This document shows, piece after piece, positions 22,556 through 27,156 of a stretch of 64,000 nucleotides of DNA. The notes beneath the pieces are model-generated. The model did not search any database, was not told where the DNA came from, and worked only from the letters and a program-made list of their open reading frames with translations. Position numbers and translations under genes: made by a program. Every line of letters starts with the position of its first letter. Within the stretch, counting starts at the first letter, position 1. Location of the stretch: NCBI GenBank assembly GCA_049322615.1, contig JBMORX010000010.1, positions 25,416 to 89,415 on the forward strand, given 5' to 3'. The stretch comes from Patescibacteria group bacterium. GTDB lineage: Bacteria > Patescibacteriota > Microgenomatia > CAYGWK01.

Positions 22556-23478
22556 AAACGAACAAAAGTTCGATTTCTTGCCCGCCTAAATTTTCGCACT
22601 CGGCCTTTCAGTACTATTCGTACACGCCTCGTGCCAAAATTTTTGGCGGACTGCAAAAATTGAACTTCGTTCAATTTTTTTGAGAGTTTGATCCTGGCTC
22701 AGGATGAACGCTGGCGGCGTGCCTTAGGCATGCAAGTCGATCGGTCGTTCGTGTCTCACTTTCGTTCGACACTTACTCCCTCAATAGCAAATATTAAATA
22801 GTAAAAATCAAAAATACATAGTAAACATTAAAAATATTTAAATTTTGATATGTATATTTACTATTTAATTTTTAATATTTAATTTTGAGCGAGTGGTGAG
22901 CGGGAGCGAGACACGAGCGATAGAGGCAGACGGGTGAGTAATGCGTACCAACCTACCTCCAAGTGAAGCATAGCCATTCGAAAGGATGGGTAATACTGCA
23001 TACGGTGGGTGGAGTTCTAAGGGTAGAAATGAAAAATGAAAATAGAAAAAATAAGCAAGCTTGTTGCTAGCGCAATAAAAATGACAATTAAAAATTTTAA
23101 AATTTTACATTGTAATTTTTCATTTTTATTTTTTAGTTTTTAATTTTATCAGTTTATTTAGCAACTTTTACTTTTAGATCTCCATCCATCAAAGAGAGTA
23201 ACTTCTCGCTCGGAGATGGGGGTGCGTCCTATCAGCTTGTTGGTGGGGTAAAAGCCTACCAAGGCGATGACGGGTAGCTGGACTGAGAGGTCGGTCAGCC
23301 ACAAGGGGACTGAGAGACGGCCCCTACACCTACGGGTGGCAGCAACTAGGAATCGTTCGCAATGGGGGAAACCCTGACGACGCGACGCCGCGTGGAGGAT
23401 GAAGGCCTTCGGGTTGTAAACTCCTTAATCCCGAACGATAGCGAGGGAGGATTAAGCACCCACTAACTACGTGCCAGC

Positions 23479-23721
23479 CACGTACAATTTTTGCGATGGC
23501 TGGTGGCGCGTAGTCTAAATCCGACTATATGCTGGGAACTCTTTTGATGTCCGCAAACAGTGTTGTGGTTTTTATGACCCGCGTCAAAAGACAATCAGCA
23601 GGCAACCCGACGTTCAGTTTACATAAACGTGGGAAGTCCTCAGAGACTATACGTCGGATTCCGATAGAATCGGGAAAGATATAGTCCAAATGTTACGTAG
23701 CAAAAATGTTACGTGGCCAGC
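23479..23721 (+). other. ORF-less group I-like intron in the 16S 515-530 region
   Basis: Splits GTGCCAGC|AGttGCGGTAA. Contains ctatatgctgg, cagagactatacgtcgg and gatatagtcc, which resemble the group I P3/P7 core. Boundaries are ambiguous by ~9 nt because acgtg(g)ccagc is repeated at both ends. Confidence 0.6.
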
Positions 23722-24160
23722 AGTTGCGGTAAGACGTAGGGTGCAAGCGTTATCCGGATTTATTGGGCGTAAGGCGTTTCGTAGGCGGTCCGATGAGTCC
23801 CGACTTAAATACCCCGACTCAATCGGGGAAGTGGTTGGGATACTATCGGACTTGAGGTTTTTGGGAGGTGCTGGAATTCGCGGTGAAGCAGTGAAATGCG
23901 TTGATATCGCGAGGAACACCAAGGGCGAAGGCAAACACCTAAAAAACATCCCGTAAATTGCCTTCGGCAATAACGGGACTCCCGTAAAGAGCAATCTTTA
24001 TGGGAATTCTGTATGCCAAAAGAATTGAGGGAACCCCGTTAGTCTTGAGCGTAAGCGAAAGACTTTACGGGGCCTGACGCTGAGGAACGAAAGCTAGGGG
24101 AGCGAAAGGGATTAGAGACCCCTGTAGTCCTAGCCGTAAACTATGCTCGCTAGATGCCCG

Positions 24161-24344
24161 GCTTGTGCTTCGCACAAGTTTCCGAATTAATCCGAATGCT
24201 TGGTTTTGGTTTAAAATTTATTCGGATAAATTCGGATGAAGAACTTGACCTAGAAGATCAGTCTCAACATCCGAATAAATCCAAATAAGAAAAGCAAACA
24301 AACACATTAGGATTAAATTCGGATATCTCGTGCGGAGCACGAGC
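24161..24344 (+). repeat. ~184-nt multi-hairpin insertion element, 16S copy
   Basis: Near-identical to 31848..32030 in 23S. Starts with the gcttgtgcttcgcacaag hairpin and ends with the ctcgtgcggagcacgag hairpin. Confidence 0.85.
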
Positions 24345-25015
24345 TAGGTGTCGTAAGCTAACGCGTTAAGCGAGCCGCCTGGGAAGTACGGCCGCAAGGC
24401 TAAAACTTAAAGGAATTGACGGGGAGCTGCACAACCAGGGGAGCGTGTGGTTTAATTCGAGACGAAACGAAGGACCTTACCTGGGTTTGACATGCCGACG
24501 TTCTAGTCCGATGAAAATCGGACAAGTCCGCAAGGAGGTCGGCACAGCTGCTGCATGGCTGTCGTCAGCTCGTGCCGTGGGGTGTTGGCTTCAGTGCCAT
24601 AACGAGCGCAACCCCTATTGTCTGTTAAATTTTCAGACGAAACCGCCCCGCCTATTTTGTCGCGGTTGTTAACACTATTTATTCTTGAGTTACAACCTGA
24701 ATTTAGTTAATAATGGCGGCGCAAGGGCGAATAGCCCTGCCCTATTCGGGCACAGCGCCGCGATTGGAATCAACGGCGGCAAATATGGCGGGGAGGAAGG
24801 AGGGGACGACGTCAAGTCAGCACGGCGCTTATGTCCAGGGCAACACACACACTACAATGGACAAAAACAGCGAGTTGCAAGCACGTAAGTGTAAGCTAAT
24901 CTCGGAAATTTGTCCTCAGTTCAGATTGTGGGCTGCAACTCGCCCACATGAAGATGGACTTGGTAGTAATCGCGGGTCAGCAAACCGCGGTGAATACGTT
25001 CTCAGCTCTTGTACA

Positions 25016-26053
25016 AAAATTGCGCCTACCGGTTTGGTTTTCCATTCCGTTGAAATCGGAACCAAAAAGAATAATTTTTGGAAGCGAAATAACATCCTCC
25101 GATGGTGACATCGAAGCGAGAAGGGTTAAAGTAGCATTTTCTAGCTTGCAGTCGAGACGGTCCCGCCTATTTGATGACCTTTCGTACAAATAGGGAAATC
25201 ACTTATTCTAATTTTGCCTTTAAAAATAAGCAAAATAGGCGGGATATTTGGGCTCGAGATGGAAAAGAAAGGAAAACCAAATTACGTAGGGAGATCTGCC
25301 ATTGACCCACCAAAAAATTGCAGCATGAGCCGCAGTTGAAATCAACTAAGGCGAATGCTAAAATTTAGGCGGGTAGTTGTCGGTGTGAACTAACAACGTA
25401 AATGGTAGAAGTCTGCAGAGTGCGTAGTACCCCGCCGAAGCGCACCACGAGCCGTGTATGAATAATACTGAAAAGGCGAGTGGCAAGCGAATGGCTGGGG
25501 GAAGGCACGTAAACTATCCAAATGGGCGCATACAAAATCATCAGTCCTTGGTATATCGTTGGTTTTACCGAGGGAGAAGGTTGTTTTGCCATAATTCTTT
25601 CGAGACATAAAACAAAGAAGGCTAAAAGGGATGCCGGACTTTGTTTTGAAATTGAGCTTCGGGGGGACGACAAACCAATCCTTGAAAGAATTCAAAAGAG
25701 GCTGGGGTGTGGTCAAATTATTGATCTTGAGTACGAGCGTTATGGTTGGAAACCCCATGTGAAGTATGTCGTTAGAAAGCAAAAAGATCTTTTCTTTAAG
25801 GTGATTCCTTTTTTCAAACAGTTTCCGCTACAAGGCAAAAAACAAAAAGATTTTGAGCTTTTTTGCCAAGCCGCGGAAATTATAAAAAATAGGGAACACT
25901 TAAAAGATGATGGAATCAAAAAACTTGAAAAAATCAGGGAATTTATGAATGAGCGCCGACCGATGTTTGGATAGTCATTCGCGAGGGTGCGGGAAAACCG
26001 CGTGCCCCGTGAGAATAGAAAATATTTTGAGCAATCAGATATTTATCTATGAA
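25016..26053 (+). other. 16S intervening sequence with LAGLIDADG ORF (near E. coli ~1396)
   Basis: Exon cttgtaca ends at 25015 and resumes at cactgcccgtca (26054). Intron class not determined. Confidence 0.65.
25522..25974 (+). CDS. LAGLIDADG homing endonuclease (single-motif type)
   Basis: YIVGFTEGEGCFAI motif. 150 aa, inside the 16S insertion. Confidence 0.8.
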   Translation: MGAYKIISPWYIVGFTEGEGCFAIILSRHKTKKAKRDAGLCFEIELRGDDKPILERIQKRLGCGQIIDLEYERYGWKPHVKYVVRKQKDLFFKVIPFFKQFPLQGKKQKDFELFCQAAEIIKNREHLKDDGIKKLEKIREFMNERRPMFG

Positions 26054-26144
26054 CACTGCCCGTCAGATGAACAAAGTCAGGGGCACTTGAAGTCCCGATT
26101 TAATCGAGATTAAAGTGAACTTGGCGATGAGCATCAAGTCGTAA

Positions 26145-26920
26145 AAAAGTTGCGACTCCCGACGGTAACGTCGGGAAAAAATCTGGCTATATCGGGGAAG
26201 CCTAAATCTGCTAAAATTAAATTAGGGATATGGTAACCGCGAGGGAACCTCGATTTAATCGGGGACTCCGTAGAGACTATACGCCAGTTCCTGTCAGAAA
26301 ATGACGAAAGCATATTTGCTGGGAGCACTCCATGATGCTACCGAGCGAAAAACCACCTATCGCATTGCTCAAAAGAGCAAATCGTATATTGAATTTCTAG
26401 CCGAAGGGATTAGATCCTTGGGCCGAAAAGCCTGGATGTACAAGGAAGGAAAATCAAGAAATCTTTATGTAGTTGAATTTTCTAAATCCTTATTAAAAAA
26501 TACTAAAATTTCCTCTCGGCAAGAAAAAATTGACTATGTGCGTGGCTATTTTGATGCGGAGGGTGGAATTGCTCGAGATCCGAAAGTGAATTATTATTTG
26601 TATTTTGCTCAGAAAAATTTGGGAGATTTACAAAAAACTAAACATTTTTTGGAAGAATTAGGCATCAGTTGTGGAAGAATTCATAACCCAAGCAAAAGGG
26701 CGGATCCAGATTACTGGCGATTCTTTATAAGAGCAAAATCTTATGAAGATTTTGCCAGAATAATTGGTTCGGATCATCCAGAAAAAAGTCATTTTCTGAG
26801 AGGATAAAGAGATAGTCCATGCCTCTGGAAACAGAAGGAAGAACCCCGAATAATTTTACCGTTCGCCGGAGTATCATTCGAACTGCGGCTCACGGAGCAA
26901 TTCAACGGGGTGAACATGAA
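26145..26920 (+). other. Group I-like intron with LAGLIDADG ORF after aagtcgtaa (near E. coli ~1500)
   Basis: Exon aagtcgtaa ends at 26144 and caaggtatcc resumes at 26921. Contains ctggctatatcgggg, gtagagactatacgccag and gagatagtcc core-like strings. Confidence 0.65.
26301..26807 (+). CDS. LAGLIDADG homing endonuclease (two-motif type)
   Basis: YLLGALHDAT and YVRGYFDAEGGI motifs. 168 aa. Confidence 0.75.
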   Translation: MTKAYLLGALHDATERKTTYRIAQKSKSYIEFLAEGIRSLGRKAWMYKEGKSRNLYVVEFSKSLLKNTKISSRQEKIDYVRGYFDAEGGIARDPKVNYYLYFAQKNLGDLQKTKHFLEELGISCGRIHNPSKRADPDYWRFFIRAKSYEDFARIIGSDHPEKSHFLRG

Positions 26921-27156
26921 CAAGGTATCCCTACTGGAAGGTGGGGATGGATCACCTCCTTTCTAAGGAGTAATTCGGAGCGATTAAGCAACTAAGCAAT
27001 TGAGCTATTGAGTTTTTCTTAATAGCTTAGTAGCTGAATAGCTTAATAGCTAAAATACACCCGAGAAGGCGAACTCGTTAAAATCGCCAAATTTCCTGTC
27101 ACGTAAGAACGTTGATTTTGCTCTGCAAAATCTTACGTTCAACGTGACTAGGGACG

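Follow-up and report, generated by a model that had tools for sequence, protein, structure and literature searches.

The 64,000-nt stretch of contig JBMORX010000010.1 analysed here (positions 25,416 to 89,415, assembly GCA_049322615.1; referred to as the window) comes from a Patescibacteria group bacterium and contains an rRNA operon with a long, interrupted 16S rRNA gene. The 16S gene is complete and is located at positions 22676–26964 on the + strand (4,289 nt). It consists of nine exon pieces of together ~1,470 nt, interrupted at eight sites by insertions that add up to ~2,815 nt. In E. coli numbering these sites are ~90 (helix 6, h6), ~191 (h10), 516/517, ~730 (h22/h23a), ~842 (h26), ~1169 (h40), 1396/1397 and 1498/1499. 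The gene order is normal, i.e., 16S-tRNAIle-tRNAAla-23S-5S. The host is a bacterium of the Patescibacteria or Candidate Phyla Radiation (CPR); the nearest relatives compared, by exon identity, are Microgenomates and Levybacteria, at most ~79% identical. With a probability of about 0.8, the locus represents a genuine CPR 16S gene burdened with three ribozyme-type introns and five hairpin insertions of the intervening sequence (IVS) type. The interruptions and the two 3' exons are the following; z-scores compare predicted folds with those of shuffled sequences, and ORF denotes an open reading frame.

22755–22911, + strand: hairpin insertion 1 at the helix 6 tip (E. coli ~80–90), 157-nt insert relative to the Rfam model, fold z -8.9
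23016–23179, + strand: hairpin insertion 2 in helix 10 (E. coli ~191–200), 164-nt model insert, GC 0.20, fold z -5.7
23473–23715, + strand: ORF-less group I intron after U516 (S516 intron), 243 nt; Rfam Intron_gpI (RF00028) 57.3 bits against a gathering score of 50
23930–24054, + strand: insertion 4 in h22/h23a (E. coli ~730–750), 125-nt model insert, fold z -5.5
24161–24344, + strand: hairpin insertion 5 at the helix 26 tip, IVS-like, repeat family B, fold z -10.3
24651–24787, + strand: hairpin insertion 6 in helix 40 (E. coli ~1169), 137-nt model insert, fold z -4.4
25016–26053, + strand: predicted group II-like intron at C1395/A1396 (S1396 intron), 1,038 nt; 25015–26052 is equally possible (1-nt junction ambiguity); intron-less junction CTTGTACA/CACTGCCCGTC
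26054–26142, + strand: helix 44 exon, 89 nt, E. coli 1397–1498; matches Rfam SSU model positions 1388–1500 with 43.7 bits, E 8e-11
26143–26918, + strand: group I intron after U1498 (S1498 intron), 776 nt; Rfam Intron_gpI 29.4 bits, E 4.5e-5; intron-less junction AAGTCGT/AACAAGGTA
26919–26964, + strand: 3' exon (helix 45 and anti-Shine-Dalgarno tail), sequence AACAAGGUAUCCCUACUGGAAGGUGGGGAUGGAUCACCUCCUUUCU

The Rfam model of the bacterial small subunit (SSU) rRNA (RF00177, SSU_rRNA_bacteria) matches the gene from position 22676 with 1079 bits over model positions 1–1533, above the gathering score. The alignment has inserts of 157, 164, 247, 125, 175 and 137 nt at model positions ~80, 188, 515, 720, 830 and 1157. 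The gene end given by Rfam, position 25051, is an artefact in which model positions 1384–1533 are squeezed into intron sequence (25012–25051/25100). It was rejected because the helix 44 exon, when searched separately, matches the SSU model. The last 46 positions of the gene read AACAAGGTATCC...GGATCACCTCCTTTCT and represent the 3' end of the 16S, with ...GGATCACCTCCTTTCT as the 3' terminus and 26964 as the last base. A whole-gene pairwise MAFFT alignment with E. coli misplaced most insertions and was replaced by an exon-only alignment, for which 1,474 nt were joined with provisional cuts. From end to end, the spliced exons can be aligned with the 16S of E. coli (69% identity). Helix 44 has 89 nt, as compared with 102 nt in E. 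coli and 85–94 nt in most relatives. Among local features of the exons, helix 39 is nearly deleted or truncated (24620–24650) and adjoins the h40 insertion, and C1400 is replaced by U (26057). Positions 525–526 are UU (23724–23725), and the pseudoknot partner at position 506 carries a matching A.

A sequence-only reading of the locus had described a single 16S gene of ~4.3 kb from a CPR host, with three introns and five hairpin insertions at these sites. The Rfam results and the exon-only alignment with E. coli bear this out. In the covariance-model alignment six of the segments appear as large inserts. The boundaries given earlier were correct to within a few nt. They are unchanged for the S1396 intron and the h26 insert, and are now 23473–23715 in place of 23479–23721 for the S516 intron and 26143–26918 in place of 26145–26920 for the S1498 intron; these differences are due to short junction repeats (GCCAGC at S516 and AA at S1498). 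The helix 44 exon had been put at only ~91 nt and is 89–91 nt. A chimeric contig had also been considered in that reading; a contig from an independent Logan assembly matches the sequence at 100% identity over 25454–27347. In addition, an endonuclease identical to that of the S1396 intron is annotated in an NCBI Patescibacteria metagenome-assembled genome (MAG), on a contig of 161.7 kb. Together these two findings make a chimera unlikely, and the gene is genuine and probably single-copy.

The S516 and S1498 elements are group I introns by the features of their sequences, and self-splicing is predicted for both. The group I-like, ORF-less character first proposed for S516 agrees with its Intron_gpI score. 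Its P1 helix is formed by exon ACUACGU and intron GCGUAGU; a U.G pair marks the splice site directly after U23472, and the intron terminates in G23715. The ligated exon sequence is GUGCCAGCAGUUGCGGUAA. In the S1498 intron, AGUCGU pairs with GCGACU; the splice site is again marked by U.G, and G26918 terminates the intron. Homologues of this intron are present in nine relatives. Most display ...AAGUCGU/ followed by UUGCGAC and ...CAUG/AACAAGG junctions; two loci (L008 and L014) deviate slightly. Nine other relatives have an uninterrupted AAGTCGT/AACAAGG, which is the same junction. The homologues, the U.G pair in P1 and the terminal G thus support the earlier suggestion that S1498 is group I-like. 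The second LAGLIDADG gene expected within it is confirmed by Pfam, as is that in the S1396 intron (see below).

26301–26807, + strand: LAGLIDADG_3 homing endonuclease gene in the S1498 intron, 168 aa; PF14528, 47.7 bits, E 1.9e-12, intact ORF

Syntenic copies of this gene are found in six relatives with 45–71% identity; the copy in L002 is degenerate.

The S1396 intron had been left untyped in the sequence-only reading. It is typed here as a predicted group II-like ribozyme and not as group I. The features within it are:

25522–25974, + strand: LAGLIDADG_1 homing endonuclease gene, 150 aa; PF00961, 77.1 bits, E 2.2e-21, intact ORF
25979–26012, + strand: domain V-like hairpin, 34 nt, 13 bp, with CGC/G.U at the triad position, a 2-nt 3' bulge and a GAAAA loop
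26016–26049, + strand: domain VI-like helix with bulged A26045, 8–9 nt from the 3' splice site; four of six pairs are doubly changed

A protein search with the LAGLIDADG_1 sequence gave 145 homologues at E <= 1e-5. The 120 listed homologues have identities of 53–100% and belong to Shapirobacteria, WWE3, Levybacteria, Daviesbacteria, Woesebacteria, Parcubacteria and others. The conserved motifs (G18 E19 G20 and others) do not vary among 20 homologues. A genome scan yielded 31 loci, and in 19 of these the LAGLIDADG_1 gene is at the S1396 site of a 16S gene. The intron is at the exact junction (after CTTGTACA) in 15 of the 19 and is one nucleotide downstream in four divergent members. These four (L016, L018, L019 and L020) represent a divergent branch of the intron family that begins CUGGCGCC / UGGCG and does not have the A-rich 5' extension; their introns appear one nucleotide further downstream, i.e., ...GTACAC/.../ACCGCCC.

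The group II-like assignment is based on the homologues and on phylogenetic conservation of secondary structure. Eight of ten S1396 homologues score 43.6–51.9 bits with the Rfam model group-II-D1D4-1 (RF01998; gathering score 35) and one scores 33.9 bits. The homologue in L005 scores 31.0 bits with RF02001, where the gathering score is 32. A comparison of the 79 nt after the ORF in 19 homologues shows that the domain V/VI-like 3' end is maintained with base-paired positions in 96.9% of the alignment cells and nine pairs with double changes, and 0 of 500 shuffles were as high. Within the domain V-like hairpin, five base pairs have compensatory changes, and there is a conserved G.U pair at the middle triad position. 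A motif that resembles exon-binding site 1 (EBS1), GUACAA at ~25184–25189, pairs with the intron-binding site (IBS1) UUGUAC of the exon. It is conserved as GUACAA or GUACAG in 16 homologues, and in L015 there is a compensatory change, GUGCAA with exon UUGCAC. A group I reading of this intron, with ACUAUCC (25511–17) and GGAUAGU (25968–74) around the ORF as P7, was abandoned because of the D1–D4 scores of the homologues, the covarying domain V/VI-like tail and the EBS1–IBS1 covariation.

Several properties of the introns weigh against these assignments. The S1396 copy in the window reaches only 27.7 bits with group-II-D1D4-1 (25374–25478), below the gathering score of 35; the low score is attributed to a longer loop. 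Its domain V-like hairpin is atypical, with CGC and not AGC, a loop of 5 nt and an additional bulged A that is invariant, and the RF00029 model shows no match on the window intron even at E <= 10. The 5' end is AAAA followed by UUGCG and not GUGYG; in 16 homologues 4–9 variable nt precede UUGCG. The S1498 copy, at 29.4 bits, is under the RF00028 gathering score of 50, and its homologues score 55.1 bits (L014, which passes gathering) and 37.6 bits (L019).

The three introns are in universally conserved and functionally critical sequence, i.e., the 530 loop and both flanks of helix 44. They would be spliced from the precursor with ligation of the exons, as is needed for a working ribosome. Spread and persistence may be by endonuclease-driven homing into intron-less alleles, and homing would account for the presence of the same element at the same nucleotide across many CPR phyla beside intron-less alleles.

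The five remaining 16S inserts are long, mostly coaxial extensions of their host helices, with fold z-scores of -4.4 to -10.3 relative to shuffled sequences. None of the 16S hairpin inserts was found in the relatives examined, and the h40 insert has no homologue there. Insertion 4 consists of three hairpins with UUCG, GCAA and GUAA loops, and eight aligned CPR relatives have no counterpart of it. Its borders are ambiguous (alternative 23949–24071) because an h23a-like segment, GGCGAAGGC / GAGCGUAAGC, occurs twice. Two versions of the h23a hairpin flank it, GGGCGAAGGC (23922–23940) and GAGCGUAAGC (24044–24060). Pairing with the 5' strand of helix 22 is better for GGGCGAAGGC and the following CACCUAAAAAAC, and the insertion point may accordingly lie ~20 nt downstream of where the covariance model puts it. 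Weak Rfam microRNA matches on the hairpins (MIR7996, MIR837 and others) are far below gathering and were dismissed as chance matches on long AT-rich hairpins.

Sequence similarity places at least the h6 and h26 insertions of the 16S gene in repeat families with members in the 23S gene, a relationship that the sequence-only reading had missed. Family A is the AT-rich palindromic core of the h6 insert (22776–22893). In the 23S gene it is 81% identical over 109 nt to 31671–31779 (insert 31664–31786) and 80% identical over 104 nt to 34305–34406; the latter copy (34298–34412) sits inside a 23S intron. The h10 insert is faintly similar to family A, with 77% identity to the h6 insert over 61 nt within 23077–23147. 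Further family members are:

31848–32030, + strand: family B copy in the 23S gene, paralogous to the h26 insert of the 16S; both have the same quasi-palindromes at their ends
32073–32199 (+ strand) and 34749–34869: family C hairpins in the 23S gene with the terminal motif; the copies are 73% identical over 123 nt
26845–26909, + strand: family D hairpin of the S1498 intron (3' tail); 65 nt match 23S positions 33724–33787 at 80% identity; also found by nhmmer
25306–25375, - strand: family D hairpin inside the S1396 intron (nhmmer, E 1e-6)

The h26 insert and 23S positions 31848–32030 are 85–88% identical over ~180 nt (E 4e-50), and the similarity ends exactly at the element borders. Families C and D tie other 23S inserts to each other and to 16S intron tails. 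Family D is a structured hairpin of ~65 nt, CCCGAAUAAU..UUACC.UUCGCC...GGCU.AUGG.GC.A.U.AACGGG. It is present in sense orientation at 26845–26909 (+) and 33724–33787 (+), and in antisense orientation at 25316–25365 (-) in the S1396 intron; an additional copy is intergenic at 40675–40740 (-). In a 16-intron alignment the antisense hairpin is extra sequence in the window row only, and the 15 homologous introns are without it. This distribution suggests that family D may be mobile at the DNA level. The hairpin interiors are built of 6–7-nt words, CGCUGA/UCAGCG and UCCGAAU/AUUCGGA (32092–32124, 34778–34845, 32507–32581 and 24181–24280). The words are spaced 10-12-10 nt, approximately one A-form turn, on one arm, and the complement is equally spaced on the other arm.

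The ends of the h26 element and of three 23S elements are conserved. Each end is a 17-nt quasi-palindrome, CTYRYGC-NNN-GCRYRAG; those of the h26 insert are CUUGUGCUUCGCACAAG (24162–24178) and CUCGUGCGGAGCACGAG (24327–24343). The window has eight exact matches to this terminal motif, all at element ends, where none would be expected. It is present in one of 34 loci of relatives. An h17 insertion in a Kerfeldbacteria 16S has the same ends and a different interior. Metagenome contigs were scanned for two such ends 65–95 nt apart, and this gave at least 132 elements on at least 120 contigs. The counts that follow refer to the matches listed. At least 127 elements are in or beside rRNA genes, and all 89 elements that could be oriented are in the rRNA sense. 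The 23S sites are ~130, 270–370, 533–620 (H25), 1103–1184 (H45), 1690–1768, 1852–1887 and 2787–2817, and the 16S sites are 69–243, 432–505 and ~1409. Approximately 80% of the 120 listed contigs match CPR references best by BLAST; the reference set is small and uneven, such that the taxonomy is only roughly CPR-like.

Pairing between the two ends is maintained across these elements. The central triplets are antiparallel-complementary in 109 of 112 distinct elements, as compared with 34 expected, usually as UUC with GGA, which requires a U.G pair. The 3' terminus is self-complementary in all 112. Secondary structure modeling predicts the extended 17-bp duplex as the minimum-free-energy form in 111 of the 112, and in the four window copies it is predicted to be favoured by 6–10 kcal/mol over two local mini-hairpins. 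The most frequent version has 5'-CUYGYGC-NNN-GCRCRAG-3' on both strands, and U.G and A.C pairs, two of each, are at mirror positions. The interiors are AT-rich (median GC 0.29) and poorly conserved between organisms, and only the closing duplex is conserved. As a general processing stem of 16S and 23S the motif finds no support, in that no further copies flank the genes, even with two mismatches allowed. An archaeal bulge-helix-bulge does not fit the ends, as the 3-nt centres are directly opposite and paired and are not staggered around a 4-bp helix. Site-specific recombination of DNA at the quasi-palindromes is disfavoured by the U.G-based complementarity and the strictly sense orientation.

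The hairpins are best described as putative IVS at variable helix tips. The hallmark of such elements is present in the predicted folds and by covariation, i.e., an extended stem-loop with complementary termini in place of a helix tip. The two-fold pseudo-symmetric terminal duplex may be where a homodimeric double-stranded-RNA endonuclease of the RNase III family recognises and cuts the RNA, and this enzyme would remove the hairpin such that a short stub remains. The elements are therefore probably of the IVS type with a dedicated double-stranded-RNA cleavage site. A broader proposal is that the ORF-less hairpins represent an undescribed, widespread class of rRNA-specific insertion elements with variable, AT-rich, word-built interiors, a conserved 17-bp duplex, at least ten sites in 16S and 23S, rRNA-sense orientation wherever orientation could be determined, and recent paralogues within one genome. 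It is tentative and is given somewhat less than even odds. No description of the hairpin families or their conserved ends was found in the searchable literature, which does not prove that none exists. Some observations speak against a dedicated cleavage site. The search pattern fixed the 5' terminus, and its conservation is thus partly imposed. Three of the five 16S hairpins (h10, h22/23a and h40) are without the conserved ends. Pairing energy by itself does not account for the strictly sense orientation, as the reversed arrangement would have equal G.U and A.C counts. A conserved sequence requirement is not known for RNase III.

The hairpins could instead be retained expansion segments that stay in the mature 16S and 23S as surface helices, as in eukaryotic ribosomes, with the conserved ends and word repeats as protein-binding sites. 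Every insert coaxially extends an existing helix at a surface-exposed variable tip, the 6-nt words at 10-12-10 nt would suit binding along one helix face, and selection acts on the RNA, in sense orientation. The position of several elements at the classical RNase III-excised IVS sites H9, H25 and H45 argues for removal, as do the poor conservation of the interiors, with only the closing duplex kept, and their low GC content (median 0.29). CPR rRNA insertions have also been reported to be removed from transcripts, as far as the summary of Brown 2015 in PMC11270868 goes. Retention is considered unlikely. It is also improbable that the elements are miniature DNA transposons, similar to miniature inverted-repeat transposable elements (MITEs) or Rickettsia palindromic elements, whose transposase reads the terminal quasi-palindromes and whose copies survive only where the rRNA tolerates them. 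Such elements would account for the paralogous copies at unrelated 16S and 23S sites and in a 23S intron, for the antisense family D hairpin that 15 homologous introns do not have, for the other copy in intergenic sequence, and for the patchy occurrence among relatives (motif in 1 of 34 loci); the ends could be taken as terminal inverted repeats. Random insertion predicts antisense and intergenic copies, but among the matches listed the CUYGYGC-bounded class is in the rRNA sense in 89 of 89 and nearly all in rRNA genes. Family D is an exception, as its copies include antisense and intergenic ones. The central triplets pair mostly via U.G (UUC with GGA), which makes them complementary in RNA and not in DNA. 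There is no target-site duplication or common target at any copy examined, and no transposase gene was seen beside any window copy.

An assembly chimera, or a dead rRNA pseudogene with the real 16S elsewhere, is very improbable. The sequence is metagenome-derived, the gene is of unusual length, no more than 64 kb of the genome can be seen, and a few universally conserved bases are changed (C1400U and UU at 525–526). The change at 525 is, however, matched at pseudoknot partner 506, and the nine exon pieces are colinear and complete, with 1079 bits together. Both endonuclease ORFs are intact, and the introns have site homologues elsewhere, at the same nucleotide for S1498 and for 15 S1396 homologues. 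The independent assembly is identical over 1.9 kb that extends from intron through h44 and the second intron to the trailer. The operon has the normal 16S-tRNAIle-tRNAAla-23S-5S order, and a single rRNA copy is usual in CPR genomes (PMC11270868). A genuine gene with ribozyme-type introns and IVS-type hairpins is the preferred reading.

The rest of the operon also has insertions. The 23S gene is at positions 31503–35313 (3,811 nt), with hairpin inserts of ~+120, +317, +136, +137 and +93 nt near E. coli positions 130–189 (H9), 221–390, 533–620 (H25), 1106–1598 (probably H45) and 2093–2227. Two further features are:

34121–34537: ORF-less group I-like intron after U1917 in the 23S helix 69 loop; Intron_gpI 45.7 bits, E 1.6e-10, just under gathering
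21935–22171, + strand: ORF with a GIY-YIG domain, 78 aa, Pfam E 8.9e-16, between tRNA-Lys and tRNA-Gln and ~500 nt upstream of the 16S gene

The junctions of the U1917 intron are AACUAU/...GUG/AACUGUUCG, and the family A hairpin 34298–34412 is in the place of an ORF. Its site lies within the cloned target sequence of the CPR endonuclease I-ShaI (PMC11270868, Table S6). The 16S–23S spacer is 4.5 kb (26965–31502) and has tRNA-Ile (28806) and tRNA-Ala (31339) in the usual order, 2.4 kb apart. Between the spacer features are a proline-rich ORF of 234 aa (27847–28551, - strand) and ORFs of 271 and 150 aa, for which Pfam gave no convincing match. The first 90 nt past the 16S gene have AGCU/UAAGC words repeated at 8-nt spacing. 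A partial 5S copy (36634–36686, model positions 14–66, 39.3 bits) is 50 nt upstream of the complete 5S (36736–36851, 63.5 bits). Downstream of the operon are two giant ORFs on the - strand, 47531–53386 (1,951 aa) and 53948–63904 (3,318 aa).

These findings are of significance for annotation and for surveys. Standard covariance-model calls end the gene at 25051 and lose helix 44 and the 3' end, and the gene would escape surveys by polymerase chain reaction, as the primer sites 515F, 1392R and 1492R are split by introns. What is added here is a corrected annotation and the recognition of hairpins as repeat families with a conserved closing duplex; metagenomic rRNA genes with this duplex number more than 100. 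Rather than random expansions, the short CPR rRNA insertions so far termed 'uncharacterized' are families of related hairpins, moved or copied between 16S and 23S. If the duplex is a processing signal, it would define a testable substrate of the enzyme on which the function of these ribosomes depends, a simple sequence rule to predict mature rRNA ends in uncultured bacteria, and a handle on the spread of rRNA insertions. If the undescribed class of elements is real, a dedicated double-stranded-RNA endonuclease that reads sequence would be expected. RNA-level or otherwise orientation-specific spread between rRNA helices may follow as well, which would set these elements apart from IVS that depend on RNase III only and from DNA transposons.

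Insertions in CPR rRNA genes are well documented. Tsurumaki et al. 2024 (J Bacteriol, PMC11270868) analyzed 380 CPR 16S genes and found insertions of at least 100 bp in 48%, with 378 insertions in 183 genes. The insertion totals have a mean of 1,075 bp (SD, standard deviation, 1,043) and a maximum of 5,627 bp, with up to 16 insertions per gene (PMC11270868). Group I introns are present at several conserved sites; group II-like introns are found only at position 1400, mostly with LAGLIDADG_1 (PMC11270868). LAGLIDADG_3 is found in CPR only in 16S and at two sites, 16IS5 and 16IS10, and the short ORF-less insertions are labelled 'uncharacterized' and 'probably IVS' (PMC11270868). For I-ShaI, a related CPR LAGLIDADG enzyme, cleavage of an intron-less target was shown at a 23S site (PMC11270868). 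The gene described here resembles the published cases in host group, recurrent sites and ORF families (Brown et al. 2015; PMC11270868), in ORF-less insertions of <200 bp at variable helices and 23S IVS sites, and in single-domain endonucleases of ~150–170 aa (PMC11270868). PMC11270868 makes no mention of hairpins or palindromes, of repeat families shared by 16S and 23S, or of CUYGYGC-NNN-GCRCRAG ends. The sequence-only reading had put the density of insertions at the extreme end. With eight insertions and 2.8 kb, the gene is above the CPR average by ~1.7 SD, yet inside the published range and below the 5,627-bp maximum (PMC11270868). Introns on both flanks of helix 44, which had also been viewed as extreme, are found in 9–10 of the 19 relatives that carry the S1396 intron. 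The gene exemplifies a catalogued phenomenon and is insertion-rich, not extreme. Among the relatives compared, 16S genes of 2.8–3.9 kb are common, and Levybacteria L008 has nearly the same set of insertion sites.

Interrupted 16S genes of some Gammaproteobacteria reportedly have a maximum of 3.5 kb, and some of the sites are said to overlap. There is a likeness to these genes in the presence of several introns per gene, a size of several kb and LAGLIDADG ORFs (Salman et al. 2012, PNAS), and their introns include a LAGLIDADG-encoding group II intron (PMC4424553). The host phylum differs, and no hairpin IVS component is known to have been described there. The S1396 intron is similar to the group IIB1 introns of fungal mitochondrial rRNA genes, in which a LAGLIDADG gene takes the place of a reverse transcriptase gene (Toor & Zimmerly 2002; Li et al. 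2011; PMC4424553). In that class splicing occurs a few nt upstream of the GUGYG-like motif, comparable with the 4–9 variable nt that precede UUGCG in 16 homologues here, and the IBS1–EBS1 geometry is altered (PMC4424553). Differences are the bacterial host and a domain V-like hairpin with CGC, an extra bulged A and a 5-nt loop, which RF00029 does not detect.

Classical IVS are found at H9, H25 and H45, and RNase III cuts them in the middle of the terminal stem (PMC4990558). As in the IVS of Salmonella, Leptospira, Coxiella and Alphaproteobacteria, a stem-loop replaces the helix tip, the termini are complementary, and 23S H9, H25 and H45 are common sites; a sporadic distribution that suggests horizontal transfer is shared as well (PMC4990558). 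Unlike classical IVS, the elements described here are also in 16S (h6, h17, h26 and h44) and at further 23S sites, and 16S and 23S copies of one genome are paralogous. Distant lineages share the two-fold pseudo-symmetric sequence of the closing duplex, a property not known for RNase III sites.

Rickettsia palindromic elements and MITEs are short palindromic repeats that are tolerated in functional genes, including RNA genes, at structurally permissive places. The hairpins of the present locus are similar in that short palindromic repeats are tolerated inside functional RNA genes. The CUYGYGC-bounded class differs from these elements in that it is restricted to rRNA, present in the sense orientation only, inserted without target duplication, and complementary through U.G pairs at the level of RNA.

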